The position numbers were made by a program, and so were the translations under genes. A stretch of 64,000 nucleotides of DNA from Planctomycetota bacterium (lineage in GTDB: Bacteria > Planctomycetota > MHYJ01 > WSZJ01): assembly GCA_038060895.1 (NCBI GenBank), contig JBBTCT010000015.1, positions 121,616 to 185,615 of the forward strand. The letters run 5' to 3'. The notes below the pieces were generated by a model. It was not told where the DNA came from and did not search any database. It was given only the letters and a program-made list of their open reading frames with translations. Of the stretch, positions 144 through 61,820 are shown piece after piece. Every line of letters begins with the position of its first letter. Positions within the stretch are counted from its first letter, which is position 1.

Positions 144-1574
144 TCACTCCGTGGGTTGCGCAACCTCAAAAGGCGGCATGCCGGCCCGGACGCAGGCTTG
201 CTTCATGTCCGCGAGCTTGATTTCGGCCTGCCGCGAGTCGCCGATCTCGAGAACCATCCGAAAGCCCTGAATCCAGCTTTCCCTCGCCGCTTCCACCCGG
301 CCGCGGGTGAGCATGAGGAGCGCGTATTGGCACAGATGAAGGGACTCGAAGCGCCTGCTGCGGACTTCGCGATGAAGGGCCAGCGCGGCCTCGTAGAAAC
401 TCTCCGCTTCATCCAGTCTCCCGGTCTCCGCGTAGAGTGAAGCGAGATTTCCCATCACGATGGCCTCGGAGCGCCGGTTGCCGACTTCCCGGTGAAGCGC
501 CAGCGCGCGCCCGTACGTGCGCTCGGCGTCGGTCGCCCTGCCCGTCGCCTGGTAGAGGCTGGCCAGGTTTCCATACACGATTCCCTCGCCGATCATGTTG
601 CCCACCTCGCGCTTGATTGCGATAGCGGCGTCGTAGGCGCGCTCGGCTTCGTCGAACCGCCCCAACTCCTGGTAGAGCCCGGCCAGGTTGCCCAGCCCGA
701 TGCCCTCGGCGCGCCGGTCGTGGAACTCGCGATTCAGCGCCATGGCCTCCTCGTATCCGCGTTCGGCCTGCTCGACGCGCCCGGTTTCACGGTGCAGTCC
801 CGCCAGGTTTCCGATCTCCAGGCCTTCGGTCCTCCGGTTGCCGCACTGTCGATGAATGGCCAGCGCCTCCTCGTGCGTGCGCTCCGCCAGCTCGACTCTT
901 CCCGTCTGCCGGTAGATGTTGGCCAGGCTCCCCAGCGTCATGCCCACCGCGCCCAGGTCGCCAAGTTTCCGGTGGATGGCGAGCGCCTGCTCGTGGAAGC
1001 GCTGGGCCTGTTCCACCCTTCCCGTTGCGTTGTTCAGGACTCCCAGGTACCCCAGGGCGGCGGCCTCGCCGCCCGGGCTTCCGGCCTCGCGGAAGACGTC
1101 CACCGCTTGCGCCAATAGCGGCTCTGCTCGGCCCATCCCGCCGGCCCGGAAGGCCGCGTGCCCGGCTCGCCGCAGCGACTCGCCCTTCTCCACCCCCGCG
1201 ACAAGTTCTGAATGTTGCTGCCACAGCCGTTCGGAAGACTGATTCTGGAAGTGCCTCGTGGCGTACTCGGCCGCCCTTCCCAGGTAGTGTTTCCTGGCCT
1301 CGAGCATCGCCTTGCCGCGGGCGGCGGCGGCGTGAAGCGCCAGGCCGGCGTGCTCGGCCAATTCCTCCGCGAATGCGTCCACGGGGTGGGGAGGGACATC
1401 CACACTTCGCGAGGATTCCTGCGGAGGGATGTCCGGCCCCGGTCCGCCTGCCAGCTTCTCGATGACCGCAAACGCAATCGCATGCAGTCTCGCGCGGTCG
1501 CCCGGCAGCTGAAGCTGGTAAGCGGCGTCACGCAGCAGTGCGTGGCGGAACAGGTACGCCTTCTCGGCAGTCAC
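144..1574 (-). CDS. TPR protein of the [23 protein letters not shown] family (copy 1)
   Basis: N-terminal [29 protein letters not shown], then 40-aa TPR-like repeats (ALAIHR..GNRR.EG..LGNLA); GATACT 6 nt before the GTG start. Confidence 0.9.
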   Translation of the reverse strand: MTAEKAYLFRHALLRDAAYQLQLPGDRARLHAIAFAVIEKLAGGPGPDIPPQESSRSVDVPPHPVDAFAEELAEHAGLALHAAAARGKAMLEARKHYLGRAAEYATRHFQNQSSERLWQQHSELVAGVEKGESLRRAGHAAFRAGGMGRAEPLLAQAVDVFREAGSPGGEAAALGYLGVLNNATGRVEQAQRFHEQALAIHRKLGDLGAVGMTLGSLANIYRQTGRVELAERTHEEALAIHRQCGNRRTEGLEIGNLAGLHRETGRVEQAERGYEEAMALNREFHDRRAEGIGLGNLAGLYQELGRFDEAERAYDAAIAIKREVGNMIGEGIVYGNLASLYQATGRATDAERTYGRALALHREVGNRRSEAIVMGNLASLYAETGRLDEAESFYEAALALHREVRSRRFESLHLCQYALLMLTRGRVEAARESWIQGFRMVLEIGDSRQAEIKLADMKQACVRAGMPPFEVAQPTE

Positions 1575-1584
1575 GCGGGCAGTA

Positions 1585-2868
1585 TCAGGACGAAAGCAGG
1601 CCGGCGGGCTTGAATTCGTGGTTCGGCAGGACGCCGGCGAGCGCCTCGTTTCCCAGGTGTCCCTTCACGACTTCCGCCATGACATCGCGGAAATCCGTGG
1701 TGTGCATGAGGTCGCGCTTGTCGTGGAGCTGGTCAGGCGCCAGGCCGGGCCAGTTTCCCAGGACGGGCTTGCGTCCCTCGCGCTTGAGCGACGGCCCCAC
1801 CGCGAGCAGCACATTGCCCCATCCGTGGTCCGTGCCGCCGGTGCCGTTTTCTTCCGCGGTGCGGCCGAAGTCGGACATGGTGAGCACGATGACGTCGTCG
1901 GCCTTCTGCCCGAGATCCGTGACGAAGGCCGCGAGCGCTTCCGCCAGTCCCTGCGCGAGATCTCCGTAGGGACCCTGCGCGGCGCCCTGGAACTGGTGCG
2001 TGTCCCATCCGCCGTAATCCACCTCGACGACTTCGAGGCCGACGTCGGCCTTGATCAGGCGCGCGGCCTGCATGAGCTGGCGCGCGATGTCGGTCTGCGG
2101 GTAGGGCATCTTCGGCTCGTATTTCTGCCCGACGATGCCGCGCAGCTTGTCGATTCCTTCGAGCGTCGCCTGGCCGGTGTCCGCGAGCAGGTCGCGCGCG
2201 TCCCCGGTTTTCTTTTTCGCGTCCTTCCGGTACGCGTGCTCGAGCGCCGCGCCGACCGTCGCGCGGTCCGTGCGGCCGTCGGGAAGACTCAGGTCGTCGA
2301 TGCCGCGCACTGCGTAGGCGCAGCACTTGCCGTGCATGATGCGGGGAAGCGCTTCGCCGATCGCGACGGCGCGAATGGGGCCGTGGCCGGTGGAGGTGAG
2401 GAGGTGGCGGTTGACCCATCCGTCGGAGTTGATCGTGTTGCCGGTGACGCCGGTTTCCCAGACGTCCTGTTCCTCGAAGTGGCTCCGGGTGTTGCGGTCG
2501 TGGCCGACGGCGTGGATGGCGGCAGCGGTGCCGTCCTTGAAGAAGGGGAGGAGGGAGGCGAGGCGCGGATTCAGTCCGAAGAATCCGTCGAGATCGATGG
2601 CGCGGCCCTCGGCCTTTTCACGGGAGGGGGAGGGGATCTGGATGGACTTGCGCAGCTTCGCGTAGTTCGGGTCCTTCCACGGGACGACCAGGTTGAGGCC
2701 GTCGACTCCGCCGCGCATGAAGACCAGGACGAGCGTCTTGCCTTTCCTGACGGGCCTTAGCGTGGCCGCGGCGGGTTGATCCTCGGCGAAGAGGTCAAAG
2801 GGAGTGACGCCGAGGTAAGCGCCGATGGCGCCGGAGAGTTTCAGGAAGTAACGGCGGGTTAAGTGCAC
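1585..2868 (-). CDS. DUF1501 domain protein with Tat-like signal
   Basis: TRRYFLK twin-arginine motif; FMRGGVDGLN, GGWDTH, SDFGRT..ENG..GTDHG motifs; AAGGAG RBS before GTG at 2868. Confidence 0.85.
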   Translation of the reverse strand: MHLTRRYFLKLSGAIGAYLGVTPFDLFAEDQPAAATLRPVRKGKTLVLVFMRGGVDGLNLVVPWKDPNYAKLRKSIQIPSPSREKAEGRAIDLDGFFGLNPRLASLLPFFKDGTAAAIHAVGHDRNTRSHFEEQDVWETGVTGNTINSDGWVNRHLLTSTGHGPIRAVAIGEALPRIMHGKCCAYAVRGIDDLSLPDGRTDRATVGAALEHAYRKDAKKKTGDARDLLADTGQATLEGIDKLRGIVGQKYEPKMPYPQTDIARQLMQAARLIKADVGLEVVEVDYGGWDTHQFQGAAQGPYGDLAQGLAEALAAFVTDLGQKADDVIVLTMSDFGRTAEENGTGGTDHGWGNVLLAVGPSLKREGRKPVLGNWPGLAPDQLHDKRDLMHTTDFRDVMAEVVKGHLGNEALAGVLPNHEFKPAGLLSS

Positions 2869-2902
2869 GGTGAGCTCCTTGGGAGGAGAAAAACGGCCAG
2901 GA

Positions 2903-2982: not shown

Positions 2983-2988
2983 TAACTT

Positions 2989-6722: not shown

Positions 6723-7745
6723 TCAGGCCGGGAAGAGCGCGCCCTGGGCAGAGGGCTGCCGGAAGGTCGTCGGTCCTCCGGTCAACCCGGACGGGTCCAT
6801 CCCGAGTTTTGCGCGCCAGATTTCGAAGAGCCGCGCGATCGAGTCCCAGCGGGGCCCGCTGCCGCGCATCCGCGTGCCGAAGCGCGGATCGTTGAGTTTC
6901 CCGCCGCGGACGTCCTCGACGGCGTGGCGCACGCGATTGACGCGATGCGGCAATTCCGAAGCAAGTCGCTCGAAGAAGATTTCCTTCACTTCGGACGGCA
7001 GCCGAAGGAGGACGTAAAACGCCGAGGTCGCGCCGGCTTCGCGCGAACGCTTGAGGATCTCCGGGATCTGGCTCTCGTTCAGCCCCGGAATGATGGGGGA
7101 GACCGAGACGCCGACCGGAATTCCGGCAGCGGCCAGCGCGCGCATCGCGTCCCACCGCGCCTGCGGCGCCGGGGCCCACGGTTCGATCTTCCGCGCCATC
7201 GCAGCGTCAGCGAACGGGATGCTGAAGTAGACGGCGGCCCTGGCTTCGCGCGCAAGGGCCGTGAGGACATCGGAATCGCGGCGGATCAACGCGGCCTTCG
7301 TGATGATGCCGACGGGATTCCGGAATTCGAGGCACACCTCGAGGCACCGCCGCGTCACCCGGTATTCCGCTTCAAGGGGCTGATAACAGTCCGTGTTCCC
7401 GCTGAACGTGACGTTTTCCCCGGCCCAGGATCTCTTCCGGAATCCCTCCCTCAACTTCTCGGGCGCGTTCACCTTCACGACGATCTTCCGCTCGAAGTCG
7501 GTCCCCGCGCCGAAGTCCCAGTACTGGTGCGACGGCCTGGCGTAGCAGTAGGCGCATCCGTGAATGCAGCCGCGGTAGGGGTTGACGGACCAGCGGAAGC
7601 CGACGTCGGGGGAGTCGTTCTCGACGAGAACGGACTTCGCGAGCTCTTCGAAGACTTCGAGCTTCGCCGGGGGAGGCGCATCGACGAACTCGTGCTGAAG
7701 TAAATTCCAGCGGCGAGGGGGGTTGACAACCGGGCGCAAAGGCAT
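6723..7745 (-). CDS. Radical SAM protein, PA0069/Rv2578c-like (spore photoproduct lyase-related) family
   Basis: NPYRGCIHGCAYCYAR (CxxxCxxC), DFERKI.VK.N, TDCYQP.E motifs; start placed at MPLRPV. Confidence 0.85.
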   Translation of the reverse strand: MPLRPVVNPPRRWNLLQHEFVDAPPPAKLEVFEELAKSVLVENDSPDVGFRWSVNPYRGCIHGCAYCYARPSHQYWDFGAGTDFERKIVVKVNAPEKLREGFRKRSWAGENVTFSGNTDCYQPLEAEYRVTRRCLEVCLEFRNPVGIITKAALIRRDSDVLTALAREARAAVYFSIPFADAAMARKIEPWAPAPQARWDAMRALAAAGIPVGVSVSPIIPGLNESQIPEILKRSREAGATSAFYVLLRLPSEVKEIFFERLASELPHRVNRVRHAVEDVRGGKLNDPRFGTRMRGSGPRWDSIARLFEIWRAKLGMDPSGLTGGPTTFRQPSAQGALFPA

Positions 7746-7797
7746 ACCTAACATCAGACGAACATATTGATTCCCGATCAAGGAGAATTGGTCAAAG

Positions 7798-9120
7798 TCA
7801 AGCCGCCTGCCCGTCCACGGACGCGGAATCGCTTCGCCGTTTAATCCACTCAACGGCGGCTCCGACGCCGCCGGCGAGCCAGAGGAACGCGAAAGGGAGC
7901 GTGGTGAGGGCAAACCGCGGCTCGACGCCGGTCGGCCCGATGGGCTGGGCGGTGAGGACGGTGTCGAGCGTCAGGATGAAAGCAAACGGCAGCAACGCGA
8001 CAAGCCCGGCGCCGATGACGAAGGCCGCTTCCCATCGACGCATCCACGCGAGTCCCGCGGCAGCGAGCGGGACGAGCCAGGCGAGCCACGCGCGGTCGGC
8101 GAGGAGGCGCGTGAGGTAGCGCGTGTAGCCGGCCCACAGGCCGGAGACGTAGCGCACGGCGACTTCCGGAAGCGAGTGCAGGCCGAAGACGTAGTGGAAC
8201 GGAGTTTCGGGCGCACCGCAGTATGAGTTCGCGACAACATCGGCGCGCGTCGGGAATCCCGGCTGCCCGGCGAATTCGTGATTGCGCCAGAATTGCGCGT
8301 GGTTCTGCATCGGGTGAAGGGGGCTTCCGGTTTTTGCGGTGTTGTAGATGAGGTACGGCGACGCGAGAAGCCAGACGCCCGCGACGATCCCGGGCGCAAG
8401 CCAGGCGTCCGCGCGAACGAATCGCTTCGAAGCGGCGCGCGCCGCGGCCCAGAGGCCGACGAGAAGCGTGGCGGTCCCGAGTCCTTCGAGGCGGGTGAGG
8501 GCGAGAAGCGCTCCCGCGGCGGCCGCGGCCGCGGCAAGGACGAGGCGGGCTCGGCGCCTCTCAGGAGGCACCCGAAAGAGCATGACCAGCGCCGAGACCA
8601 GCCCGAGCGTGCACGCCGCCGCGATGTCTTCGCGCAGGAATCCGACGCCGTAGAGCGACAGCCAGAGATTGTCGGCCCAGAGGAGGGAAGCGACGAGGGC
8701 GCCGCAGCGTCCCGCGACGAGCAGTGCGCACCCGAAGAGGGCGCCCATTGCCATCAGGCCGTGGACGATCGACCAGCGGCGCAGCATGGCGTGGTTCTCA
8801 AGGACGCGCTGGCGCGCCGCGTCGTCGCGCGCTTCTTCCATCAGCCCGGCGTCCAGATCTCCGCCAACGGCCAGCGCGATGCGCCCGTCGGCGACGATCA
8901 CCGGCTCCCGCTCGGTCGAGAACCCGGGAAGCGGCGTGCGCATCGCCAGCCGGTAGTAGGACGACGCGTCCCCCGACAGGTGCGGCGTCGCACCCTCGAT
9001 TTCTCCCGCAAGAACCGCTTCCGCAATTTCGAGCCGGCGGATCGTCGCAAGGACCAGCAGCAGCACAAACGCCGCGAGCGTCGCTATCCATCGGGCTTTT
9101 TCGCTCGGCGGCCACTTCAT
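7798..9120 (-). CDS. Polytopic membrane protein, possibly a GT-C fold glycosyltransferase
   Basis: Many hydrophobic segments, GD..SY loop after the first TM segment, C-terminal EPRF; function uncertain. Confidence 0.6.
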   Translation of the reverse strand: MKWPPSEKARWIATLAAFVLLLVLATIRRLEIAEAVLAGEIEGATPHLSGDASSYYRLAMRTPLPGFSTEREPVIVADGRIALAVGGDLDAGLMEEARDDAARQRVLENHAMLRRWSIVHGLMAMGALFGCALLVAGRCGALVASLLWADNLWLSLYGVGFLREDIAAACTLGLVSALVMLFRVPPERRRARLVLAAAAAAAGALLALTRLEGLGTATLLVGLWAAARAASKRFVRADAWLAPGIVAGVWLLASPYLIYNTAKTGSPLHPMQNHAQFWRNHEFAGQPGFPTRADVVANSYCGAPETPFHYVFGLHSLPEVAVRYVSGLWAGYTRYLTRLLADRAWLAWLVPLAAAGLAWMRRWEAAFVIGAGLVALLPFAFILTLDTVLTAQPIGPTGVEPRFALTTLPFAFLWLAGGVGAAVEWIKRRSDSASVDGQAA

Positions 9121-9193
9121 GAAGCGGGATTGTCGCGGCGGCGCGGTTGCAGCGCGACTGGAATCAAAGGGAAGTGGGGCGCATAATCCGGCG

Positions 9194-9979
9194 ATGCGGA
9201 TCTTCCTCACGACGATGTTCCTGTGGCCGGCCTGCCTGGCACTCGCCGAGGAACCCGTGACCCTCGCGTGGAACGTCGCCGAGGGCGACAGTTTCCTTCT
9301 TCAGATCGTTTCGGACCGCCGCGCGGAAATGCAGAGCGGGAAGCAGCCCTTGCCTCTCGCGACCAGGTTCCAGATCACGATCACGGGGGCGCTGACGGTC
9401 GGAGCCGCCGCGGAAGACGGAGCCCGCAAGTTCGAATTCAGCTTCGCATCCCTCGAGGGGACGGTTGAAGCTCTCGGCGTGAAGTTGTCGATTTCCGAAA
9501 AGCCCGAGGATATTTCCGGCAAAAAGATCTCCGCGACTCTCAGCGCTGCCGGGCAACTGACCTGGGACGAAGAGGCGCTGAAGAAAGTGGCCGAGGGCAT
9601 CGACCTCAACGAGGATTTCGCCCACCTCCTGCCGGCGCTTCCCAAAGCACCTGTCCGTCCCAACGAATCCTGGGAAGCGGAAGTCGACCGGCACACGAAC
9701 ACGTGCGAGCTGGTTCGGCGCGAGGTCACGGAGAAGGGTCCCACGGCCGTGCTGAAGGGAAAGTCGAAGGCCGACGAGACCAGCGGGGAGGGCGACCTGA
9801 AATCCTCGCTTCGAGTCGATGGGACATTCTCGGGTGAATGGGACCTGGACCGCGGGTACCTGAGAGTTTTCGACGAGACGAGAACGGAAGAAGCGAAAAT
9901 CGTGACGAAGGACTCGGTGCTCATCACGAAGTCCGAGGTGAAGCGGCGGGTCGTGCTGGGGAAAGTGAAACGCGACTGA
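9194..9979 (+). CDS. Exported hypothetical protein
   Basis: Signal peptide MRIFLTTMFLWPACLALA; CATAAT 6 nt before ATG; LPKAPV.P.ESW motif. Confidence 0.75.
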   Translation: MRIFLTTMFLWPACLALAEEPVTLAWNVAEGDSFLLQIVSDRRAEMQSGKQPLPLATRFQITITGALTVGAAAEDGARKFEFSFASLEGTVEALGVKLSISEKPEDISGKKISATLSAAGQLTWDEEALKKVAEGIDLNEDFAHLLPALPKAPVRPNESWEAEVDRHTNTCELVRREVTEKGPTAVLKGKSKADETSGEGDLKSSLRVDGTFSGEWDLDRGYLRVFDETRTEEAKIVTKDSVLITKSEVKRRVVLGKVKRD

Positions 9980-9982
9980 GGT

Positions 9983-11059
9983 TCAGCCGCGCCGCCGCAG
10001 CTGCCCGCACGCGGCATCCTCTTCGGCTCCCCGCTGTTTCCGGATGTGCACGGTGACGCCGCGCTCGCGCAGGATCTCCCAGAACCGGACGGCTTTTTCC
10101 TTCGTCGCAGCCCGGAACGGCAGGCCTTCCACCGTGTTGTGCGGGATCAGGTTGACGTGGAACGTGCGCCCTCGCAGGACTTCCGCGAGCTGCTCCGCGT
10201 GTCCGGGCGCGTCGTTGACGCCGTCGAGCAGGACGTAGCTGATCGTGACGTGGCGGCCCGTCCGCGCGCGGTAGTCCGCGGCCGCGTCGAGCGTCTCCTG
10301 CACGCTCCAGAGTCGCGGCGCCGTGCGGACGATCGCCGCGCGCGTGGCGTCGTCCGGCGCGTGCAGCGACACGGCGAGGTGCGGCGGTTCATCCGACGCG
10401 GCCAGCGCTTCCATGCCGGAGACAATCCCGACCGTGGAAACCGTGACGCCGGAGGGAGGGAGCGCCCCGGCGTGGCGGTGTGTGAGGTTGCGGATGGCGA
10501 CGATGACGTTGTCCACATTGTGGAGCGGCTCGCCCATGCCCATGAACACGACCGTGGCAAGCCGCTGACCGCGCGCTGCGGCCTCGCGACGAAGGAGCAG
10601 CGCCTGCGCGACGATTTCGCCCGCCGTCAGGTTTCGCGTCAGGCCGCCTAGCCCGCTTGCGCAGAACGAGCATCCCGCGGCGCACCCGACCTGGCTGGAA
10701 ACGCACGCCGCCGCGGTGGGCCGCCGAATCCGCGGCGTCCTGTCGTTGCGATTGCGTGCGCTCATGCGCTTCCGCGAATGGTCCCCCCGCACTCCCGGGA
10801 TCAGCACGCACTCGACCGCCCGGCCGTCGGACAGCGCGAGCAGCAGCTTGGAGGTCCCGTCCGCCGCGTCCACGCGTTTCGAAATCACGGGCAATTCCGC
10901 GTCAAATTCAGCCGCCGTTTCGCGCAACTTCCGCCCGATCCATGGCGCTTCTTCCAGCCCATACGCCGCGCGGAGCGATCTCTGGACGTTCTGGGCCGAA
11001 CTCGCGCCGGCGAGGCGCGAGAGGAGACTGTCGGCAGGCTGGTCGAAGAGTGAGTTCAT
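9983..11059 (-). CDS. rlmN: RlmN/Cfr-family radical SAM RNA methyltransferase
   Basis: CVSSQVGCAAGCSFCASG, VFMGMGEPL, SLHAP, VNLIP and DAACGQL motifs; N-terminus divergent, may be a paralog. Confidence 0.75.
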   Translation of the reverse strand: MNSLFDQPADSLLSRLAGASSAQNVQRSLRAAYGLEEAPWIGRKLRETAAEFDAELPVISKRVDAADGTSKLLLALSDGRAVECVLIPGVRGDHSRKRMSARNRNDRTPRIRRPTAAACVSSQVGCAAGCSFCASGLGGLTRNLTAGEIVAQALLLRREAAARGQRLATVVFMGMGEPLHNVDNVIVAIRNLTHRHAGALPPSGVTVSTVGIVSGMEALAASDEPPHLAVSLHAPDDATRAAIVRTAPRLWSVQETLDAAADYRARTGRHVTISYVLLDGVNDAPGHAEQLAEVLRGRTFHVNLIPHNTVEGLPFRAATKEKAVRFWEILRERGVTVHIRKQRGAEEDAACGQLRRRG

Positions 11060-11357
11060 GGGCTGGCGCGGGATGAGTTTGTCACACGCGTGGCGATCCT
11101 GGGAAATGGGTTCTTTGGGAGACAGGATGCAGATCCGCGGCCTCCTCATCCGGAATGGCGGCACCGAACTCAACCGTGTGGCCTGATATGCAAGGCACCG
11201 GGGCGGGCGAAAATCCCGTGGGGGCGGGCGGAGTCGGCCCGCACAAGGAAAACCGCTCAATGACCGTCCCTGGGCCGACGCAGCCTGAACCCACGGGATT
11301 TTCGACCGACCTCTCCATTCTTTTGCCCTGACAACGCTTCAACCTACAATCCGCCCC

Positions 11358-15658: not shown

Positions 15659-16167
15659 GCCGGAGCCTGTAGGGTGGCAGCTCGTCGAACGCGGAGTTCC
15701 CACAGCCAGAGGGCACTCGCCAGGGTCACAAAGGAGGCAAGCCAGAACCAATACCCGAAAAGAATGCGCTCGGATGGGCCGTGCTTTGCGATGGCCCAGG
15801 ACAGCACGTGAAGCGAGGCGACAGTAGCGGCTATGGCCGGCCAGAGCCGGCGCCGCGAGGGGCGAATCAACGGAAGTCCCGGAACGCAGAGCATAAGGGC
15901 GTTGGGAATCGTGAACGAGGACTCCAGGAGGTCTTCGCCTTCCCCTTGGAGAACCCACCAGAAAAATGTCGCGGACCACTGGCCACATTCCCAGCCCACG
16001 AACCGTTCTGCTCCCGAAGGCGCGCTGGCTGGCGGCGCGGTGAAGGTGCCCACTTCCCACGCCGGCATTGCAAGGGAGGCCAGGAAGACCACGAAGGCCG
16101 CCGCGACTCCCCAGGGCAGTCGCGGAAAGGGAGGTGGCACCAGCGTCTCTGCGGATTCCTCGCTCAC
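15655..16167 (-). CDS. Small membrane protein (tandem paralog A)
   Basis: GTG start overlaps the AAA ATPase stop (GTGA); its stop overlaps the paralog B ATG; clear similarity to paralog B. Confidence 0.75.
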   Translation of the reverse strand: MSEESAETLVPPPFPRLPWGVAAAFVVFLASLAMPAWEVGTFTAPPASAPSGAERFVGWECGQWSATFFWWVLQGEGEDLLESSFTIPNALMLCVPGLPLIRPSRRRLWPAIAATVASLHVLSWAIAKHGPSERILFGYWFWLASFVTLASALWLWELRVRRAATLQAPA

Positions 16168-17324: not shown

Positions 17325-17363
17325 GCGGTGATTGTACACGCGACGGTCCGGCCCGCGGGCGCC

Positions 17364-20645: not shown

Positions 20646-20701
20646 GGGCCGATTATGACATGGCTCCCGGAAGCAGGCGGGAAACAGCGGTGCGGCGCCT
20701 G

Positions 20702-25611: not shown

Positions 25612-25840
25612 CGCGGGTATCCTAGTCGCTTCGTTGCCGGAAGCAATCCGGGAAAAATCGGGCGGTTTGCGGTTCCCCGGACCCTGAAAACAAAACATCT
25701 GCCTGCGCGGGATTTTTTCTGCGTTCGCCTTTGATTTTCCGGATCCCACTGCTTCATGCGCTGGAAAATCAAAGACGGGTCGCGAATGAAAGAGAATCGA
25801 AGAGAATACGACCTGGCATGAAGGAAAGGGCCGCAGCCGC

Positions 25841-31451: not shown

Positions 31452-31543
31452 ACGCGGAGAACGCTTACCTCTTTCGTCATGCGCTGCTGCGGGATGCGGC
31501 TTACCAGCTGCATCTCCCTGGTCGAGACGACCCGAGGTTTTGA
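31448..31543 (+). pseudogene. 5'-only remnant of the FRHALLRDAAY TPR family (31 codons)
   Basis: GTG-NAENAYLFRHALLRDAAYQLHLPG then RDDPRF-stop; GTG overlaps the copy 2 stop (GTGA); not in the ORF track. Confidence 0.8.
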
Positions 31544-40458: not shown

Positions 40459-40472
40459 GAGTACAGCGAGTA

Positions 40473-40979: not shown

Positions 40980-40980
40980 G

Positions 40981-52190: not shown

Positions 52191-52967
52191 TTACTTCTTC
52201 AAGCTCATCTTCGCGTCGTTGCCGCTGCGCTTGAGAACTGTCGTCGATGTGAGGACCCATTCCGAGTCGGATTCCTCAAAGGTGGACTTCACCTCGCCGC
52301 CCTTACCTTCGGCTTTCCCCTCGGTCTTCACTTTGCCATCGTAAGGATCCGGAGCGCCTGCGGCCGGGCGTTTCAAAGGAAACGGGACTTTCTCGCTGGT
52401 CCAGGTCGCGGTCTTCTGTCGGTATTCCCGCTGCGGCAGTTTGGTTGTGATGTCCGACTCGGATTTCTCGCATTCAAAGTCCCCGGCTGGAACCGAAAGC
52501 TTTTCTTTCGAGATCTTGATCGTGCCCGAGCCTTCGAAACCAGTCTTCTTGACCGGATTGGCCGGCTTCTTGTCGTCAGACTTTGGGACCTCCACTTCCT
52601 TGCCCGGCTCGCCTGGTTTACCCCACCACGCCTTCGTTACCAACCCGGACTTCCGGTCGACTGAGTAAACGATGACCGTTCCAGGCCACCAATGCTCCGT
52701 TTCCCTGTTGGTTTCCAGGAGGATCGCGTCGGGTTCAACGCCGACACAAGCGAGCCGCCAGGCTGCCTTGTCGGGAGTCCCCGGACTGCCTCTCTCCACC
52801 GTTTCGCCCGTCGTCTCATACTCGACCCATTCGCCGCCCTTCAGCCCTGACAGCTCGTACTCCGCGAACATCTTTTCGTACACGACCGGGTCGGCCAGCT
52901 GTGCCTGCGCCTTCGCAGCGCAAAGCGCCAGCAGCAACGCGCTGGAGCGGGCTTTCAGTTTGCGCAT
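52191..52967 (-). CDS. Exported hypothetical protein
   Basis: AAGGAG RBS; signal peptide; G.WVEY, E.LSVPAG.F.C and W.SEKVP motifs. Confidence 0.75.
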   Translation of the reverse strand: MRKLKARSSALLLALCAAKAQAQLADPVVYEKMFAEYELSGLKGGEWVEYETTGETVERGSPGTPDKAAWRLACVGVEPDAILLETNRETEHWWPGTVIVYSVDRKSGLVTKAWWGKPGEPGKEVEVPKSDDKKPANPVKKTGFEGSGTIKISKEKLSVPAGDFECEKSESDITTKLPQREYRQKTATWTSEKVPFPLKRPAAGAPDPYDGKVKTEGKAEGKGGEVKSTFEESDSEWVLTSTTVLKRSGNDAKMSLKK

Positions 52968-53096
52968 GAATGTGACTCCTTGAGATGTTCGTCTCGGAAT
53001 TGGAGTTAAGCCTACTAACACAACCAACCCCGCGACACGAATAACAGGCGCGCGCGGGGCAACCTTCTGTTTTTCCCGTTAACCTCGGGGTGGATC

Positions 53097-53328
53097 TCAG
53101 CCGCCGGGCTGCGTCACCTCCGCCTTCGCACACGTTTCCCGCCACGCCCGGCGAATGAGGTCGAACTTGTGCGAGTCGCGGACTCCTTCGAGGCGCTCGA
53201 CCGCTTCCTGCCAGGCGGCGCGGGAGGGCGGCCTCGTGGAGGCGCGCGCGGACGCCGGGGAGCTGGAGGTGGTAGGCGGCATCGCGGAGGACGGCGTGGC
53301 GGAAGAGATAAGCGGACTCGGCGTTCAC
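53097..53328 (-). pseudogene. TPR family gene with all repeats deleted (5' motif joined to 3' tail)
   Basis: MNAESAYLFRHAVLRDAAYHLQLPGVRARLHEAA then, frameshifted, RAAWQEAVERL...WRETCAKAEV; TACGAT 6 nt before GTG retained. Confidence 0.8.
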
Positions 53329-55085: not shown

Positions 55086-56606
55086 TCAATCAATCGCCTC
55101 CACTCCCGCCCTCGCGCACTCGGCCTCCATCAGCGCGAGCGAGTCGTTCAGCACGTCCTTCTCATCGAGCTTGCGGAGAACCGCGGCTCCCTTCGTCCAT
55201 GAAGCGCGAGCCTCCTCGATCCGCCCCTCGAACACCAGGAGGGCGGCCGCATAGCAGCGGCAGGAGGCTTCGCCGGAAGGATTCGAGGACTGCGTGCACG
55301 CCTGCAGCGCTTCATCGAGGTGCGTCCGCGCCTCGCGGTGACGGTCCAGCTTGTGGCTGAGGACGGCGAGGTTGAGAAGCGAGACGCCTTCGGACCGCCG
55401 GTCGCGGCCCGAGCGGTGAAGGTCCAGCGAACGCTGGTACGTCCCGAGCGCCTCCTCCAGCCGGCCCTGGTCCGCGAGGACACCGGCCAGGCTGCCCAGC
55501 GCAAACGCCTCCCCCCGCACGTCGCCCATGGTCCTCAGGATTTCCAGCGCGGTCTCGATGGCGTTCACCGCCTCGGGAAATCGCCCTCGTGCTCCCAGGA
55601 TCGAGCCCATGTTGGCGAGGACGTTGGCTTCGCTGAAGCGGTCCCCGCATTCGCGGGCGATGGGAAGCGCCTGGACTGCGAAAGTCTCGGCCTCGTCGGG
55701 CCGGCCTCGGTAGATGTGGTAGTTCAGGAGCCCCGCCAGGGCCCGGCCCTCTCCCGCCCGGTCGCCCGCGGCCCGGAAGACTGCCAGGGCGCGGCGCTTC
55801 ACGCGTTCCGCTTCGTCGTACCGGGCCGTGGTCAGGTACAGCGTGCCCAGTGCGCCGAGCACGACTCCCTCCAGCCGGCGATTCTTCGTCTTCCGGTGAA
55901 ACGCCAGCGCTTTCAGGAAGGCCGCCTCGGCCTTCTCGATCCGCCCGGTCTCGGAGTACAGCGCCGCGAGATTGCCGAGGTCGTGGCCCTCCATCGCGGA
56001 GTTTCCCGTCTCCCTGTGGATCTTCATCGCGCGCCGGTACCCCCGCTCGGCCTGGTCGAGCCTCCCGGTTCTCTTCCAGATCAGCGCCTGGCAGGCCAGC
56101 ACAAATCCCCGGAGGCGCGCGTTTCCCCGCGAATGGGAAAACGCTTCCTCGAGCAATCGCTCCGCTTCCGCGCGATTCCCGCCGAGCTCCAGCAGGCGCG
56201 CCGCGCGCGTCAGCAGCCCTGCTCGACCGGGACCGGACATCTGGCCGGCCAGCGCCCGCCAGTGCTCCGTCGCTTCCGCGTGGCGAAACCCGCGCTCCGC
56301 CGCGGCGGCGGCCCGGAAGAGGTACAGGCGATGCGCGGCGGTCCACTCCGATTGACGTGCTCCGCGGGGCTCTCCGGCGCGAAGCGCGTGCTGCGCGAGT
56401 TCCCCGGCGAAGACATCGGACGGATGGGAAAGGGTGGGAACACCGTTGGATGAGAAATCTACGTCCGGAGGCCGCCCGCCGGCTTGCGTTTCGATCGCCT
56501 CGAACGCCATTCCATGCAGCCGCGCGCGGTCTCCGGGGAGCTGGAGTTGATAAGCCGCGTCGCGCAGCAGGGCGTGGCGGAAGAGGTAAGCCGTCTCGGC
56601 GTTCAC
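55086..56606 (-). CDS. TPR protein of the FRHALLRDAAY family (copy 6)
   Basis: [31 protein letters not shown]; TAGGAT 6 nt before GTG. Confidence 0.9.
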   Translation of the reverse strand: MNAETAYLFRHALLRDAAYQLQLPGDRARLHGMAFEAIETQAGGRPPDVDFSSNGVPTLSHPSDVFAGELAQHALRAGEPRGARQSEWTAAHRLYLFRAAAAAERGFRHAEATEHWRALAGQMSGPGRAGLLTRAARLLELGGNRAEAERLLEEAFSHSRGNARLRGFVLACQALIWKRTGRLDQAERGYRRAMKIHRETGNSAMEGHDLGNLAALYSETGRIEKAEAAFLKALAFHRKTKNRRLEGVVLGALGTLYLTTARYDEAERVKRRALAVFRAAGDRAGEGRALAGLLNYHIYRGRPDEAETFAVQALPIARECGDRFSEANVLANMGSILGARGRFPEAVNAIETALEILRTMGDVRGEAFALGSLAGVLADQGRLEEALGTYQRSLDLHRSGRDRRSEGVSLLNLAVLSHKLDRHREARTHLDEALQACTQSSNPSGEASCRCYAAALLVFEGRIEEARASWTKGAAVLRKLDEKDVLNDSLALMEAECARAGVEAID

Positions 56607-56716: not shown

Positions 56717-58237
56717 TCAGACTTGACCTTCGAACGGCGCCACCCCCGCCTTCGCGCAGGCATCCTTCATCGAGGCGGTCTTCCGGGACAGTTCGCCGGC
56801 GTCTTCGACCTGGCTAAGGAGGTCCGCGCCCCGGCGCCACAGACCGGAGGCGGCGCCGGGATGGCCGAGGGCGAGTTCGAGAAGCGCGACGTCGCAGAGG
56901 GCGGCGCCTTCGAGGCGGACGGCGCGCAGGTCGCGAAGGATACGGAGGGCCTGGTCGAATTGTCGGCGGGCTTCCTCCAGGCGGCCCTCCCGCGTGAGGA
57001 CGGCGGCGAGATTGGCGATTGCCAGCGCTTCGGAGCCCCGGTCGCGCACCTCGCGATGGATTTCAAGTGCCGCCTCGAAGAGCGGCCGCGCTTCCGCGTC
57101 GCGCCCCTGGTCGCTTCGGAGGAGTGCGAGATTCGCCAGGGCGATGCCCTCGAATCTCCGCTGGCCGAATTCGCGGTGAAGGACGAGCGCTTCCTCGAAC
57201 AGGCGATCCGCCTGCTCGAACCGAAGGGTCTGCTGCATGAGGATCGCGAAATGCCCGAGGGCGGGTCCGGCCGCGCGGCGATTGCCGGTTTCGCGGTGGA
57301 GGGCGAGGGTTTCGGCGAACAGCCGCTCGGCGAGATCCGTTTCGCCGGCGTCGCGCAGGAGTCCGGCGAGGTAGCCCATGACGGTTCCTTCGAGGCGGCG
57401 GTCGCCCGCGGACCGGAAGACGGCGAGGGCACGTTCGAAGCACGCGCGGGCTTCGGCGATGCGACCCGTTTCCTTGAGCAGGGTCCCGAAGTTCCCCGTT
57501 ACCTGCGCTTCCAGGTGCGACTCGCCGGTCGAGCGATGCAGATCCAGGGCCTGGGAGTAGGCCTGGTGCGCGAGGTCGGGGCGTCCCGTGCCCTTGTAGA
57601 GGTTGGCGAGGTTTCCGAGCGCGGTCGCCTCCGAGACCGGGTCGCGAGCTTCGCGGAACGTGTCCAGCGCCCTCAAGTACGTCCGCTCCGCGGTCGCGAC
57701 GTCGCCTTCCTGCATTTCCAGGTTCGCGAGGTTGACGAGCACCATGCCGTGCGTCCGCGCCGCCTCGGGGGCCTCCGCTGCCCGAAGGGCCTCGGTCAAC
57801 AATTTCCGCGACTCCGCGCCCTTTCCGGCGTCTCCCGCCGCGACGGCGGCGCGCCGGAGGGCGTCCGCCCGCTCTGCGCCGGAGCTCAGTTCGGCCTGCC
57901 GGCGCCACCACCGCTCCGCGTCCGCGCTTCGATTCTGGCGCGTCGCGATCCATCCCGCGCGACGGACATACCGCGCTTCCGTCGCCTCCGGCGCGGCCGC
58001 GAGCCGCGCGTGCGCCGCGAGCTCTTCCGCGAACGCATCCGTCGGATGCGGCTTAAGGACAAGGCGCCCGGGTTTCTCGACGGAAGCGTCGTCGGCCGGG
58101 GCGCCGCCGCAGAGATCCTCGATCGACGCCATTGCGAGGCCGTGCAGCCGCGCGCGGTCGCCGGGGAGCTGGAGCTGGTAGGCGGCGTCGCGGAGGAGGG
58201 CGTGGCGGAAGAGATACGCGGTCTGGGCGGAAGGCAC
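56717..58237 (-). CDS. TPR protein of the FRHALLRDAAY family (copy 7)
   Basis: [30 protein letters not shown]; TAGAAT 6 nt before GTG. Confidence 0.9.
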   Translation of the reverse strand: MPSAQTAYLFRHALLRDAAYQLQLPGDRARLHGLAMASIEDLCGGAPADDASVEKPGRLVLKPHPTDAFAEELAAHARLAAAPEATEARYVRRAGWIATRQNRSADAERWWRRQAELSSGAERADALRRAAVAAGDAGKGAESRKLLTEALRAAEAPEAARTHGMVLVNLANLEMQEGDVATAERTYLRALDTFREARDPVSEATALGNLANLYKGTGRPDLAHQAYSQALDLHRSTGESHLEAQVTGNFGTLLKETGRIAEARACFERALAVFRSAGDRRLEGTVMGYLAGLLRDAGETDLAERLFAETLALHRETGNRRAAGPALGHFAILMQQTLRFEQADRLFEEALVLHREFGQRRFEGIALANLALLRSDQGRDAEARPLFEAALEIHREVRDRGSEALAIANLAAVLTREGRLEEARRQFDQALRILRDLRAVRLEGAALCDVALLELALGHPGAASGLWRRGADLLSQVEDAGELSRKTASMKDACAKAGVAPFEGQV

Positions 58238-58325
58238 TCACCAATTCTATGCGCAGATCCCTCGTGCCGCCGGTCTCAGGGCTGTCGCCTTGTTTGCAAC
58301 TCCCGGTCTTCCTATCATCATCGCA

Positions 58326-58798
58326 ATGAGCCTGAATCGTGCCTCAGCGCTCCTTGTTCTCCTCGGCTTCGCCTTGGTGGACTTGTCATGCTCTGAACCC
58401 TCCGGGCCGGTGTTTCTACCAGAGCCCGAGCCGGCGCCCTTTCACGACTCTCCGCGCGACGACTTCGCCCGGGCCATGGGGCGGATCAAGGAGGGAATGC
58501 CGGCGGCGCCAATCTCGAAGTCATCTTCGAGCGCCAGAGTGAGAGCGAGGTCCGGCTGACGGCCTCGCGAAGCCAGGATGGAACCGAGGCTCTGCCGGTG
58601 ATGACGTTTGAGATTCTTGAGGGCGATGGCGTCTCTTCACCTCTCCTGTCATGGGATTTCAAGTCTTCCCCGATGGTCCGTGCCCGGACAATGACGTCCT
58701 CCAAAGGTGCATTGCTTCCGTTGCGAGAGGGCTCGCCAATCCGGATCAGGGTCAAGATCGGGGACCAGTCGACGACCAGCCTTCCGCTCAGGCCTTAG
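58326..58798 (+). pseudogene. Probable frameshifted or internally deleted lipoprotein gene
   Basis: TATCAT then ATG, lipoprotein-like signal (LVDLSC); reading frame appears to change near 58510 into the frame ending at 58798. Confidence 0.35.
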
Positions 58799-58879
58799 TC
58801 TTCGCGATGGCAGACATCCTGCGCGGAACCCCCGCGATGCCGGAGGGGCGAGTTGAGAGTCGGGTGGAGGGGGCCGACT

Positions 58880-60562
58880 TCATGGGGGCGATTCTGCGGG
58901 GGGGAACGGGCCTGGGTGCTCGGGCAGCGGCGCGACTCCAGCCTTGGCGCACGCTTCGCGCATCAAGACCCGCCTGACCTCCAGGTCGCCCGCGGCGGAG
59001 AGGCGCTTCAGGAGCGCCGTTCCCTGCCGCCAGAGCGCCTCGGCTTCGGGGTGTCGCGAGAGGCGGAGGAGGCACAGGGCGAGGTCGCACGAGCAGATGC
59101 CCTCGAACCGCCGATCGCCGACTTCCCGGAGGATGGCCATCGCCTGCTGGTACACGGGCTCGGCCTGTTCGGCGCGGCGGGTGTCCACGTAGATGCCGGC
59201 CAGGTTCGCGAGGACGATGCCCTCGAATCTCCGGTTGCCGGCTTCCCGGTGGATGGCCAGCGCCTGCTCCCAGGTGCGTTCGGCCTGTTCGACGCGACCC
59301 GTCTCCCGGTAGACGAGACCCAGGTTGCCCAGCGCGATGCCCTCGCTTCGGCGATTGCGGACTTCCCGGTGGATGGCCAGCGCCTGCCCGTACGTCCGCT
59401 CGGCCCGTTCGGAGCGGCCGGTCGCGTGGTAGATGAGGGCCAGGTTCTCCAGGGCGATGCCTTCGCTCCGGCAGTCGCCGACCTCCCGGTGGATGGCCAG
59501 CGCCTGCTCGCAGATGCGTTCGGCCTGTTCGAGTCGGCCGGTCTCCTGGCAGAGGAGGGCCAGGTTGGCGAGAGTGACCCCTTCGAACCTGCGGTTGCAG
59601 ACCTCCCGGTGTATGGCCAGCGCCTTTTCGAATGCGGTCTCGGCGAGTTCTGCGCGGCCGGTCTCCCTGTAGAGGAGAGCGAGGTTCCCCAGAGCCCCGC
59701 CTTCGAGACGGCGGTTGCCGACTTCCCGGTGAATGGCCAGGGCCTGCCGGTACATTCGCTCGGCCTGCCCGGTGCGGCCGGTCTCCCGGTAGACGTTTGC
59801 CAGATTTCCCAGAGTGGTGCCTTCGAGCCTGCGGTTGCCGGCCTTCCGGTGGATGGCCAGCGCCTCCTTGTACGCGCGCTCGGCCTGTTCGGCGCGGCCG
59901 GACTCATGGAAGACGATGGCCAGGTTCCCCAGGGCGGCGCCCTCGCCCCGGAGGTTGCCGCCCTCACGGTGGATGGCCAGCGCCCGCGCGTACGCGCGCT
60001 CGGCCCGTTCGTCGCGGCCGGTCTCGTGGTAGACGATCGCCAGGTTCCCCAGCGTGGCGCCCATATTTCGGAGGTCGGCGACTTCCGAGAACAAGTCGAG
60101 CGCTCTCTCATAGTGCGCCTCAGCTTCCTGCGGCCGACCTCCTTTCCACGCCGCGACGCCGGCGCTGCGCAGCGCCGCCGCGCGGAGGGCTCCCTGGGAC
60201 AGACCGGCCAGTTCGAGCCAGCAACCCTTGGCTTCCGGCCGGAACTGGCGATCCGCGAGTTCGGCGGCGCGACGGAGATAGTGGGGAAGTGCATCCGTCG
60301 GGACTCCCGACCCCTCCGCGCCGGACGCCTGGCGGGCATGTCCGGCGAGCTCGAGCGCGAAGGCGTCCGTCGGGTGGGGCGCGAAGGCGGGGGGCTCGGC
60401 AGCGTCCGACGGCGGCGGCTCCGGCGGCCGGCCGCCGCAGTGCTCCTCGATCAGCGCGAACGCCAGCCCGTGCAGCCGAGCGCGGTCGCCGGGGAGCTGG
60501 AGCTGATAGGCCGCATCGCGCAGCAGGGCGTGTCGAAACAGGTAAACCGATTCGGCATTCAC
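58880..60562 (-). CDS. TPR protein of the FRHALLRDAAY family (copy 8), with highly homogeneous 120-nt repeats
   Basis: GTG-NAESVYLFRHALLRDAAY overlapping the upstream stop (GTGA); ATGGCCAG recurs every 120 nt from about 59253 to 59973. Confidence 0.9.
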   Translation of the reverse strand: MNAESVYLFRHALLRDAAYQLQLPGDRARLHGLAFALIEEHCGGRPPEPPPSDAAEPPAFAPHPTDAFALELAGHARQASGAEGSGVPTDALPHYLRRAAELADRQFRPEAKGCWLELAGLSQGALRAAALRSAGVAAWKGGRPQEAEAHYERALDLFSEVADLRNMGATLGNLAIVYHETGRDERAERAYARALAIHREGGNLRGEGAALGNLAIVFHESGRAEQAERAYKEALAIHRKAGNRRLEGTTLGNLANVYRETGRTGQAERMYRQALAIHREVGNRRLEGGALGNLALLYRETGRAELAETAFEKALAIHREVCNRRFEGVTLANLALLCQETGRLEQAERICEQALAIHREVGDCRSEGIALENLALIYHATGRSERAERTYGQALAIHREVRNRRSEGIALGNLGLVYRETGRVEQAERTWEQALAIHREAGNRRFEGIVLANLAGIYVDTRRAEQAEPVYQQAMAILREVGDRRFEGICSCDLALCLLRLSRHPEAEALWRQGTALLKRLSAAGDLEVRRVLMREACAKAGVAPLPEHPGPFPPAESPP

Positions 60563-61707
60563 TTCAGCCCTCTCAACGTCGCCGGCAGATCCAGGATCGA
60601 CACCGCCTCGGTTTTCTTTCCCATCGGCCACGACTTCGGGCCCGGGTAGACGACGAAGAGCCGTTCGAGCTTCAGGTCTTGGTGCGCGACGTGCATGGAC
60701 TTCGTCATCGAAGGCCCGTCGGTGAGTTTAATCTCGAATCCGAACCGCTTCCCGCCGCGAACGATCAGCAGGTCGAGCTCGGCGCCGGCGTGCGTGCGAT
60801 AGAACCAGCCTTCGCGCTCGCCGAGGAGGGAGAGGACCTGTTCGACGACGAAACCTTCCCATGAGGCGCCGTGGCGCGGGTGTGAAGCGACTTCCGTGGC
60901 GGTCCGGAGGAGAAGAAGCGCGTGGAGGAGGCCGGAATCGCGCACATAGATCTTTGGTGATTTCACGAGGCGCTTGCCGACGTTCTCGAACCAGGGTTGC
61001 AGCTGGCGGACGACGTAGGCGCCGGTAAGGAGGTCGAGGTAGCGCCGGGCGGAGCTTTCACTGGCGCCCAGCGAGCGGGCGAACTCGGCGGCGTTCCAGA
61101 CCTGGCCGTGGAAGTGGGCGATCATGGTCCAGAAGCGGCGGAGGGTGGCCGCGGGGATGGAAAACCCGAGCTGGGGGATGTCGCGCTCGAGAAAGGACCG
61201 GACGAAGTCCTCGCGCCACTCGAAACTGGCGGACTCCGACCGGGCAAGGAACGAGCGCGGAAAGCCGCCGCGGGTCCAGAGCGTGCGGAAGGCGGCGGGT
61301 CGCGTCTCCACGATGTCGAAGCCGGACATGTCCACGTAGGCGACGCGGCCTGCCAGCGTTTCGGACACTCCGCGCACCAGGTCGGGGGAAGCGCTTCCGA
61401 GAATGAGGAATCGTGCCGGCGTTCCCCTGCGGTCCGCGAGGACGCGGAGGTGCTGGAACAGGTCGGGGCGGCGCTGGATTTCGTCGATCACGACGAGGCC
61501 GCGGAGGGGTTCGAGGGCCAGGTCGGGAGGATCGAGGCGGCGGAGGTCGCGCTCGGACTCGAGGTCGAGGTACTGGCCGGCGGAGACTCCGGCCAACTCA
61601 TGGGCAAGGGTGGTTTTCCCGCACTGCCGGGGGCCGAGAAGAGCGACGACGGGGGAGCGGGCCAGCGCGGCGCGAACGGCGTTCCTGAGTCGGGGGCGTC
61701 GGATCAC
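60559..61707 (-). CDS. AAA_14 plus DUF4143 ATP-binding protein
   Basis: GPRQCGKTTL, IDEIQR.P.LF, LGSAS, ETLAGR, RGGFP, KRLVKSPKIY.RDSGL, E.DL...FEIK. Confidence 0.9.
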   Translation of the reverse strand: MIRRPRLRNAVRAALARSPVVALLGPRQCGKTTLAHELAGVSAGQYLDLESERDLRRLDPPDLALEPLRGLVVIDEIQRRPDLFQHLRVLADRRGTPARFLILGSASPDLVRGVSETLAGRVAYVDMSGFDIVETRPAAFRTLWTRGGFPRSFLARSESASFEWREDFVRSFLERDIPQLGFSIPAATLRRFWTMIAHFHGQVWNAAEFARSLGASESSARRYLDLLTGAYVVRQLQPWFENVGKRLVKSPKIYVRDSGLLHALLLLRTATEVASHPRHGASWEGFVVEQVLSLLGEREGWFYRTHAGAELDLLIVRGGKRFGFEIKLTDGPSMTKSMHVAHQDLKLERLFVVYPGPKSWPMGKKTEAVSILDLPATLRGLK

Positions 61708-61761
61708 GGGAGAAAAGTGTACATTGAAAATCAGCTATAAGGTAGAGGAATTTCAAGGATA

Positions 61762-61820
61762 AGCGGCGTCGAGCTGGAGCTCGTACTCGGCGTCGCGGAG
61801 GACGGCGTGGCGGAAGGGAA
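61762..61820 (-). pseudogene. Tiny 5'-motif remnant of the TPR family
   Basis: Reverse strand reads FPFRHAVLRDAEYELQLDA; abuts the direct repeat at 61822. Confidence 0.65.

Follow-up and report, generated by a model that had tools for sequence, protein, structure and literature searches.

RESULTS

A family of tetratricopeptide repeat genes with a common start

The window analyzed here is a 64-kb stretch of DNA (G000:C15:121616-185615; GC content, ∼67%) from the 5.4-Mb assembly of a Planctomycetota bacterium (47 contigs, 86.5% complete). It carries eight intact genes for tetratricopeptide repeat (TPR) proteins, members of a family with tens of copies in this genome. A single-copy gene for a truncated cyclase-nucleoside triphosphatase (NTPase), lying ∼1.4 to 3.8 kb left of the first base of the window, stops where the TPR proteins start. 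Our analysis indicates that the two gene types probably represent one STAND (signal transduction ATPase with numerous domains) signaling NTPase, split inside its winged-helix domain (WHD) into one enzyme half and many sensors that dock onto it in trans. We refer to the two proteins below as the enzyme half and the sensors.

The sensors are TPR proteins of 430 to 590 amino acids (aa) that open with M[30 protein letters not shown] and lack any P-loop NTPase. All eight genes listed in the original prediction are present and open with the peptide given there, each carrying [30 protein letters not shown] after its start codon. The copy nearest the enzyme half, at 144-1574 on the minus strand, encodes 476 aa from a GTG start and is the one used for the structure models described below. 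On the plus strand lie the copies at 30036-31451 (TTG start 6 codons ahead of the conserved Tyr), 32751-34352, 34488-35900 (TTG start, TACCAT box 9 nucleotides [nt] upstream), and 36841-38340 (GTG start, TAGAAT box 6 nt upstream, a leaderless-type layout). In the copy at 32751-34352, the first start of the frame, GTG at 32751, adds ∼30 aa before the motif, and no ATG, GTG, or TTG stands 3 to 12 codons ahead of the motif. The remaining copies, on the minus strand, are at 55086-56606 (506 aa, GTG start, TAGGAT box 6 nt upstream), 56717-58237 (506 aa, GTG start, TAGAAT box 6 nt upstream), and 58880-60562 (conserved GTG start at 60562, with an open frame reaching back to 60631). Both Pfam and motif matches mark the copies starting at coordinates 144, 30036, 36841, and 58880. 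TPR_12, TPR_10, and TPR_7 were above the Pfam gathering cutoffs in all four window sensors scanned, with TPR_12 scores of 115 to 228 bits against a cutoff of 30.1.

The window also holds two broken copies that the earlier list did not include. The first, at 31448-31543 (plus strand; motif at 31466; 49.5 bits), keeps a start codon and motif residues 1 to 25, beyond which it no longer follows the family sequence and runs into a stop. The second, at 52816-53328 (minus strand), is a truncated sensor of 170 aa with a TACGAT box 6 nt before its GTG start; its match to the N-terminal module ends at profile position 56, and a Pfam scan of it gave no match. A gene for an ATPase with AAA_14 and DUF4143 domains (60559-61707, minus strand) overlaps the sensor at 58880-60562, the TGA stop of the former sharing letters with the GTG start of the latter (GTGA), which suggests translational coupling for that sensor copy alone.

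A profile built from the first 125 sensor residues was compared with the 36,011 open frames of at least 80 aa in the genome. It matched 78 of them, which comprise 52 intact sensors, 9 fragments, and 17 weak matches (22 to 38 bits). All 52 intact members carry the module at the N terminus of their frame, and 13 of the 17 weak matches are internal sites, at residues 515 to 850 of AAA_16 STAND proteins of 1,031 to 1,438 aa. This bears out the earlier remark that large ATPase-TPR proteins are the usual setting of the motif, which is internal there. The sensor family occupies 32 loci and 94.6 kb, or 1.75% of the assembly, with many copies in tandem arrays and clusters of up to eight. The copy at C24:138530, where 553 aa lie open upstream, was considered as a full-length gene and rejected, since it is a tandem copy with a TTG start, read through in another frame. 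A 482-aa TPR frame at G000:C5:122357-123802 (plus strand) matches only profile positions 26 to 90 of the module, at residues 258 to 322, and may be a rearranged or fused member of the sensor family.

Database homologs have the same organization. In 108 of the 120 best matches, the motif lies within the first 60 residues; among the other 12, seven have a variant motif at the N terminus, three have the motif at residues 65 to 77, and two have none. They come from Planctomycetota-type metagenome bins and, where named, are called "tetratricopeptide repeat protein" or "hypothetical protein." One 798-aa homolog, P0033, joins the standard N-terminal peptide and TPRs to an APH-type kinase domain (PF01636) and is the only fused variant among these 120.

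Alignment with fused cyclase-AAA_16-TPR proteins places the sensor start at the last strand and helix of the WHD, just past the wing loop. We take this segment to be the "MHD" region of nucleotide-binding leucine-rich repeat receptors (NLRs), whose histidine contacts ADP in the off state. Across 79 aligned sensors, overall identity to the first sequence is 30 to 51%, and eight columns are invariant (Y7, F9, R10, H11, R15, A18, Y19, and H31), all of them within residues 7 to 31.

A single-copy cyclase-NTPase that ends in the wing loop

The original prediction had proposed that the sensors might share a partner ATPase, and a candidate that ends where they start was found just outside the window. 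The enzyme half is encoded at G000:C15:117791-120196 on the minus strand (802 aa from its Met, within an open frame at G000:C15:117791-120280). Pfam recognizes Guanylate_cyc in two stretches and AAA_16 (5.4e-11), with no TPR. In an alignment of 70 homologs, the P-loop residues G441, G443, and K444 are invariant and D580 nearly so, and Walker A and Walker B are both present. In the cyclase domains of the same alignment, D30 and D80 are invariant and N340 and R344 nearly so; these four are presumably the metal-binding and transition-state residues of the cyclase.

The chain ends with "...EGVLIPAD" and 9 further residues, the point at which five fused relatives go on with a Y-x-F-R-H motif and at which the sensors begin. 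The enzyme half therefore stops in the wing loop of its WHD, while the last strand, the histidine of the FRH motif, and the next helix are encoded at the starts of the sensor genes. The NTPase chain thus lacks a complete WHD with the conserved histidine, and a C-terminally fused repeat sensor is absent both from it and from all 44 database clusters described below. No other such frame occurs in the genome, in which 17 other WHD-bearing frames run on for 500 to 850 residues. A 519-aa frame at C20:50409-51965 has a WHD and the motif, with just 59 aa after the motif. Other AAA_16 proteins considered as alternative partners were set aside as ClpB-like (L007 and L008), a KAP NTPase (L009), and an AAA_16-GAF-HTH protein (L010).

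Single-copy orthologs of the enzyme half were found in six of seven congeners (72 to 87% identity); none was found in the seventh, G006, whose assembly is 85% complete. A distantly related family of the same phylum, f66, has one ortholog in each of 11 sampled genomes (55 to 67% identity; frames of 791 to 913 aa), that of G089 being split over two contig ends. The six ends inspected in the genus stop 8 to 10 residues past the "EGV(L/I)" point, and these together with five inspected in f66 all stop 8 to 17 residues past it. The protein database holds 44 clusters with 60 to 100% identity in the NTPase-WHD part, all with only PF00211 and PF13191; 42 are 773 to 808 aa long, and the other two are marked partial. 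The next match after these has 29% identity, 1,304 aa, and TPRs. Because the truncation is conserved across genomes, it does not represent decay. Two distant homologs from other lineages, P0152 (794 aa) and P0252 (803 aa), each with 35% identity, end at the wing loop before the Y-x-F-x-H position; they may be splits that arose independently or genes cut short by the end of a contig.

Conservation along the enzyme half is uneven. Between the two bacterial families, the WHD part (residues 721 to 793) is 85% identical, compared with 61% for the whole protein, 55% for the cyclase domains, 69% for the NTPase, and 11% for the tail past the wing. Such freezing would be expected of an interface that tens of partners must all fit.

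Homology to unsplit two-cyclase proteins

The two halves are collinear with proteins that are still in one piece. Among the 150 best homologs of the enzyme half (HMMER), 138 have at least 1,000 aa and contain the motif internally, and the whole enzyme half aligns to their N-terminal 750 to 800 residues. The nearest long relatives are unsplit proteins of 1,100 to 1,450 aa that resemble soluble adenylyl cyclase (sAC) and carry a similar motif internally. In the 11 closest (35 to 41% identity), a family-like motif stands right past the wing loop, and the median score with the N-terminal profile of the sensor family is 45 bits, compared with 28 bits for the other 127 long homologs and 22 to 38 bits for the one-cyclase STANDs of the genome itself. 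Genome G059 has a single motif match (68% identity), located 16 nt downstream from where the enzyme-half homology ends, and one 1,110-aa frame spans both. As a ruler of collinearity only, we used the NCBIfam model TIGR03903 (TOMM system kinase/cyclase fusion protein; cutoff, 705.75 bits): the enzyme half covers positions 382 to 814 (66.5 bits), and residues 4 to 42 of the sensor at 55086-56606 cover positions 828 to 866 (20.5 bits), both far below the cutoff.

In a tree of the enzyme half (378 columns), the short halves of both families form one clade (SH-aLRT support, 100). This clade nests within the two-cyclase group (100) as sister to P0128 (94), whose family-profile score (53.5 bits) exceeds those of the other close relatives.

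Co-occurrence of the halves and divergence of the sensors

We searched 301 genomes drawn evenly from the phylum with the 41-aa sensor start (E ≤ 1e-6). Seventeen gave matches. Fifteen of these have at least 14 matches each and comprise four genomes of the window's genus and 11 of family f66; the other two have one match each, one of which is the unsplit G059 gene. Related genomes with the expansion hold 14 to 89 N-terminal matches. A short enzyme half was found in 14 of the 15 expansion genomes, the exception being G006, and in none of the other 286.

The sensors might instead compete with or modulate the ∼16 fused one-cyclase STANDs that this genome encodes beside the split one, displacing a built-in wing strand rather than acting on the enzyme half. 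These proteins carry a related internal motif, and one of them is encoded in the window (17364-21218, minus strand). Their WHD is already complete, however, and the family module matches them weakly, as noted above; moreover, no expansion of the sensor peptide was seen outside the genus, with 0 to 4 matches per genome in the 23 other relatives searched. We therefore regard such a role as very unlikely.

The repeats of the sensors combine a fixed framework with variable positions. The 52 intact copies contain 397 repeat units, mostly 6 to 10 per protein, with conserved G1, L4, N6, L7, A8, G15, R16, A20, A27, R32, G35, R37, and R38; positions 9, 11 to 13, 17, and 22 to 25 vary (2.8 to 3.7 bits). 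For the sensor at 144-1574, likely orthologs with 65 to 67% identity are present in three congeners whose enzyme half is 83 to 87% identical, and no match above 52% was found in four other congeners. Judging by these comparisons, the sensors appear to evolve faster than the enzyme half.

Structural models of the two ends

A co-fold of the sensor N terminus with a candidate ATPase had been suggested, and the pair passed its controls. Residues 395 to 802 of the enzyme half (70-row alignment) and residues 1 to 130 of the sensor (79-row alignment) gave ipSAE interface scores of 0.65, 0.65, and 0.66, compared with 0.00 for the best of three controls; partner pLDDT (predicted local distance difference test) did not fall below 76, and the runs shared at least 88% of contacts. 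In calibration, 58 of 80 solved complexes attained the mark used for such co-folds, as did 2 of 110 mismatched pairs; these counts are only roughly valid with alignments of our own.

In the models, sensor residues 4 to 22 and 27 to 41 contact enzyme-half residues 728 to 769 and 787 to 793 as well as F674 of the conserved GNPF motif in the helical domain. Sensor residues 7 and 9 pair strand on strand with residues 787 to 790, and residues 15 to 19 and 30 to 34 pack on residues 747 to 759. The two ends are, as modeled, structurally complementary.

Modeled alone, the sensor is a confident all-helical solenoid (pLDDT, 95) with residues 1 to 21 as a helix (pLDDT, 81 to 82). A structure search with the whole model returned only generic TPR proteins, the best being peptide-binding adaptors such as LGN/Pins and kinesin light chain. 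These results bear on another explanation, namely that the TPR proteins are free-standing scaffolds or adaptors that arose from a truncated STAND gene and no longer work with any NTPase, the N terminus being kept for their own folding or for another shared partner. The position of most copies far from the enzyme half and their public annotation as plain TPR proteins agree with such a function, as do the confident lone solenoid and its adaptor-like matches. A scaffold function would nevertheless leave unexplained why expansion genomes have a complementary single-copy enzyme half (14 of 15 versus 0 of 286), why a partial WHD is the most conserved region of that protein, and why the co-fold passes controls, and we consider it unlikely.

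Sensor starts and upstream regions

The copies become homologous ∼20 nt ahead of the conserved Tyr codon, where an ATG, GTG, or TTG lies in frame. Of 60 copies, 54 have a start codon 3 to 12 codons ahead of the motif Tyr, 50 of them at 6 or 7 codons. A −10 box of the form TAnnnT stands 4 to 9 nt upstream of the start in 25 of the 60 (22 at 6 to 7 nt and 18 at exactly 6), a layout found at 0.6% of 20,000 random positions. This spacing is what would be expected of leaderless transcripts. Judged from their own starts, their −10 boxes, and the N-terminal motif in homologs, the sensors appear to be real, separately expressed genes.

Four copies outside the window (C5:111859, C5:117387, C24:139954, and C35:63216) have no −10 box and share other upstream sequence, rich in CTCAA/ACTCC repeats and ending at CCGATG, which may be a second type of sensor 5′ region. 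In three metatranscriptome runs (one sample from one study), contig pieces without differing letters cover sensors and neighboring genes alike at a depth of 2 to 5.

Synonymous conservation within the module

The original prediction had described the shared start as conserved even at the nucleotide level, and this holds for one segment of it. We counted codons from the conserved Tyr and scored third positions at fourfold-degenerate sites. At codons 0 to 14, third-position identity is 0.31 to 0.50, compared with ∼0.40 expected from codon usage, with the exception of Arg codon 8 (0.63 versus 0.39). At codons 16 to 25, which encode [10 protein letters not shown] and lie 48 to 78 nt past the conserved Tyr codon (for example, window positions 56511-56540, minus strand), identity is 0.55 to 0.80 versus 0.35 to 0.44 expected. 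The same codons are used here in five copies from three other species of the genus, and two copies from family f66 use others. An exact shared run of at least 25 nt occurs in 97 of 1,431 copy pairs, mostly ending at codons 16 to 25; the median longest run is 14 nt. For the first 120 nt of the eight window copies, a search for shared mRNA structure predicted 20 pairs, none with compensatory changes (covariation term, +0.7), and so gave no support for one.

The synonymous conservation at codons 16 to 25 would fit DNA cassettes in which the conserved 5′ stretch is a homology arm, either for recombining sensors into an expressed gene or for unequal crossing-over that changes copy number. The excess synonymous identity, its recurrence in other species, the long exact runs, and the many tandem arrays are all in keeping with this. 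The form of the idea put forward earlier, an arm for swapping sensors onto a full-length STAND gene, is not supported: no full-length locus with a family-type module was found, and no frame of at least 1,000 aa scored above 38 bits in this 86.5% complete genome. Moreover, the copies are intact open frames with conserved start codons of their own, 25 of 60 with a −10 box placed as for a leaderless transcript, and the first 45 nt, one Arg codon aside, are at codon-usage expectation. The other codons in f66 and the short median run argue in the same direction. We did not adopt cassette swapping as the principal explanation and judge it extremely improbable.

Neighboring genes

Between the enzyme half and the first window sensor, and divergent from the former, lies a gene for a 460-aa Ser/Thr kinase with a C-terminal cyclic nucleotide (cNMP)-binding domain (G000:C15:120364-121746, plus strand; Pkinase, 7.7e-41; cNMP_binding, 1.3e-10). 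Its last 131 nt are positions 1 to 131 of the window.

The fused one-cyclase STAND of the window is complete (1,284 aa; Guanylate_cyc, AAA_22, and TPR_12) and is followed by a classic AAA ATPase gene at 16164-17339 (minus strand). Farther right, the open frames of two large Ser/Thr kinases (22456-26043, minus strand, and 25841-28552, plus strand) overlap head to head; one has a weak TPR_19 match, and the other has a C-terminal FGE-sulfatase domain. A 470-aa frame without a Pfam match (7798-9210, minus strand) lies between two radical SAM genes (6723-7913 and 9983-11260, both minus strand). The GC content of positions 40001 to 42000 is 0.54, compared with 0.64 to 0.73 elsewhere in the window.

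DISCUSSION

One enzyme half and many sensors

The ends of the enzyme half and the sensors are complementary, both proteins are homologous to parts of unsplit proteins, and they occur in the same genomes; the conservation of the enzyme half peaks in its partial WHD, and the two ends co-fold with scores that pass controls. We consider it probable that they are a STAND signaling NTPase divided within the WHD, with one enzyme half serving many sensors that dock in trans. This was one of the forms in which the original prediction had cast the family, as detached sensor halves docking on a shared ATPase or effector, and the predicted partner found here, conserved and co-occurring, with the predicted contact surface the best-conserved part of each protein, supports it. 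The findings that might have spoken against that prediction went the other way: the N terminus aligns to a WHD, a candidate partner exists in the genome, and no earlier description of the family was found.

In the proposed mechanism, the enzyme half would contribute a pair of class III cyclase domains, the AAA_16 P-loop NTPase, a helical domain, and three-quarters of a WHD, from its beginning into the wing loop. A sensor would contribute the missing last strand and helix of the WHD with the FRH histidine, a helical linker, and 6 to 10 variable TPR repeats. It would dock by completing the WHD of the enzyme half, through strand pairing and through two helices packing on the WHD helices, so that the histidine corresponding to the "MHD" latch would come from the sensor, in trans. 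We take this latch to hold STAND proteins in their ADP-bound off state and the FRH histidine to be its counterpart. Binding of a ligand to the TPR surface would then release the latch and turn on cyclic-nucleotide synthesis, and the product could be read, in this genus, by the cNMP-binding kinase encoded next to the enzyme half. The kinase is a candidate reader of the cyclase product and a lead for this genus only; we rejected it as a universal reader on the ortholog searches given below.

More tentatively, the whole may form a modular repertoire: one NTPase-cyclase engine without a latch of its own would serve tens of fast-diversifying, separately expressed TPR sensors that supply the latch in trans, coupling many ligands, invader derived or environmental, to one cyclic-nucleotide output. 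We offer this as a possibility that is somewhat doubtful as it stands.

Several results count against the split-STAND reading or limit it. In a tree of the N-terminal module (126 columns), 57 of 96 inner branches are open, and the sensors form a comb between a one-cyclase clade (99) and the unsplit sAC-like clade (98) instead of nesting in the latter, a result that is neutral to mildly negative. With that tree unresolved, descent from the sAC-like clade rests on the profile scores and the enzyme-half tree. No longer protein with a family-type module was found at E ≤ 0.001 among 2,608 candidates in a word-based search, which is weak evidence. The genomes with the expansion fall into two groups of kin, and the co-occurrence therefore counts as about two independent observations, or as one if the system was transferred. 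The sensors are spread over 32 loci, only one of them near the enzyme half, and one enzyme half for ∼50 sensors raises a stoichiometry problem. The co-fold score expresses the confidence of the model itself; the existence of intact homologs tends to let the halves of a split domain pass such a test, and the enzyme-half alignment included unsplit relatives. The sensor also folds confidently alone and so need not depend on a partner. In the RNA libraries, the equal low depth on sensors and neighbors shows neither transcription nor transcript starts, and one piece (57748-58440) spans the proposed leaderless start at 58237. Finally, the cNMP-binding kinase adjoins the enzyme half in four of seven genus loci; in G001 it is encoded at another site, and searches of G005 and of three f66 genomes yielded no full-length ortholog.

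STAND and NLR receptors are normally single chains in which sensor, nucleotide switch, and effector coevolve. If the split reading is right, one switch-effector with tens of exchangeable sensors that complete its switch domain would represent a novel design for a receptor repertoire, in which specificities could be gained or lost by duplicating a 1.5-kb gene while the engine is left untouched. It would account for 1.75% of a genome annotated only as "tetratricopeptide repeat protein" and would give a bacterial protein related to soluble adenylyl cyclase a defined partner for its regulation. It would also provide a simple test bed for the winged-helix histidine latch in STAND activation, the latch being on a separate, swappable protein.

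Comparison with known systems

The motif strings of the sensors were found in no paper in open-access text, and we found no description of a one-to-many STAND split in the WHD in the open-access literature, including passages of PMC7159879, PMC13581612, and PMC3475452. A search of a survey of bacterial STAND receptors (2026 Nature, PMC13581612) gave no passage on cyclases, action in trans, separate-gene or standalone sensors, or Planctomycetes; the single one with the word "split" concerns the handling of split proteins in domain prediction. PADLOC-DB 2.0 matched only generic PycC cyclase, TPR, and kinase models and no specific defense system, and no Avs or NACHT model matched in that search. 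The NCBIfam AfsR and MalT models gave partial TPR matches below their cutoffs.

The closest known proteins are the unsplit two-cyclase AAA_16-TPR STANDs related to ADCY10, which have the same domain order and are collinear in sequence with the split system. The best solved-structure match of one of them, P0124, is the two-cyclase catalytic core of ADCY10 (4oya/4clf; E value, 4e-16). For the C-terminal region of human sAC, passages of PMC3475452 describe a P-loop motif along with possible TPR motifs, which the authors call degenerate and speculative. Unlike the unsplit sAC-like STANDs, the system described here is cut in the wing loop of the WHD, and it combines a single-copy enzyme part with a separate sensor gene that has multiplied into tens of diverged copies.

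AAA_16-TPR proteins of the MalT/AfsR type, Avs proteins, and NACHT receptors share with the split system a P-loop NTPase, a helical domain, a WHD, and a variable-repeat sensor as the likely recognition surface. In contrast to the split system, they hold sensor and NTPase in one polypeptide, and their diversity comes from whole-gene paralogs. Pycsar and other cyclase-based defenses share the class III cyclase domain (PADLOC PycC, 2.3e-17) and, in this genus, a cNMP-binding protein next door. The locus differs from Pycsar in that it has no Pycsar effector architecture, its cyclase is tied to a STAND NTPase, and the neighboring gene encodes a kinase, not a membrane or TIR effector.

The logic most resembles that of plant sensor/helper NLR (NRC) networks, in which, according to published abstracts, many diversified and faster-evolving sensors act with few conserved executors. 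NAIP/NLRC4 in animals follows the same scheme of many sensors and an executor. In both cases, the two partners are complete NLRs with their own NTPase, whereas the sensors described here have no NTPase and are predicted to complete a domain of their partner.

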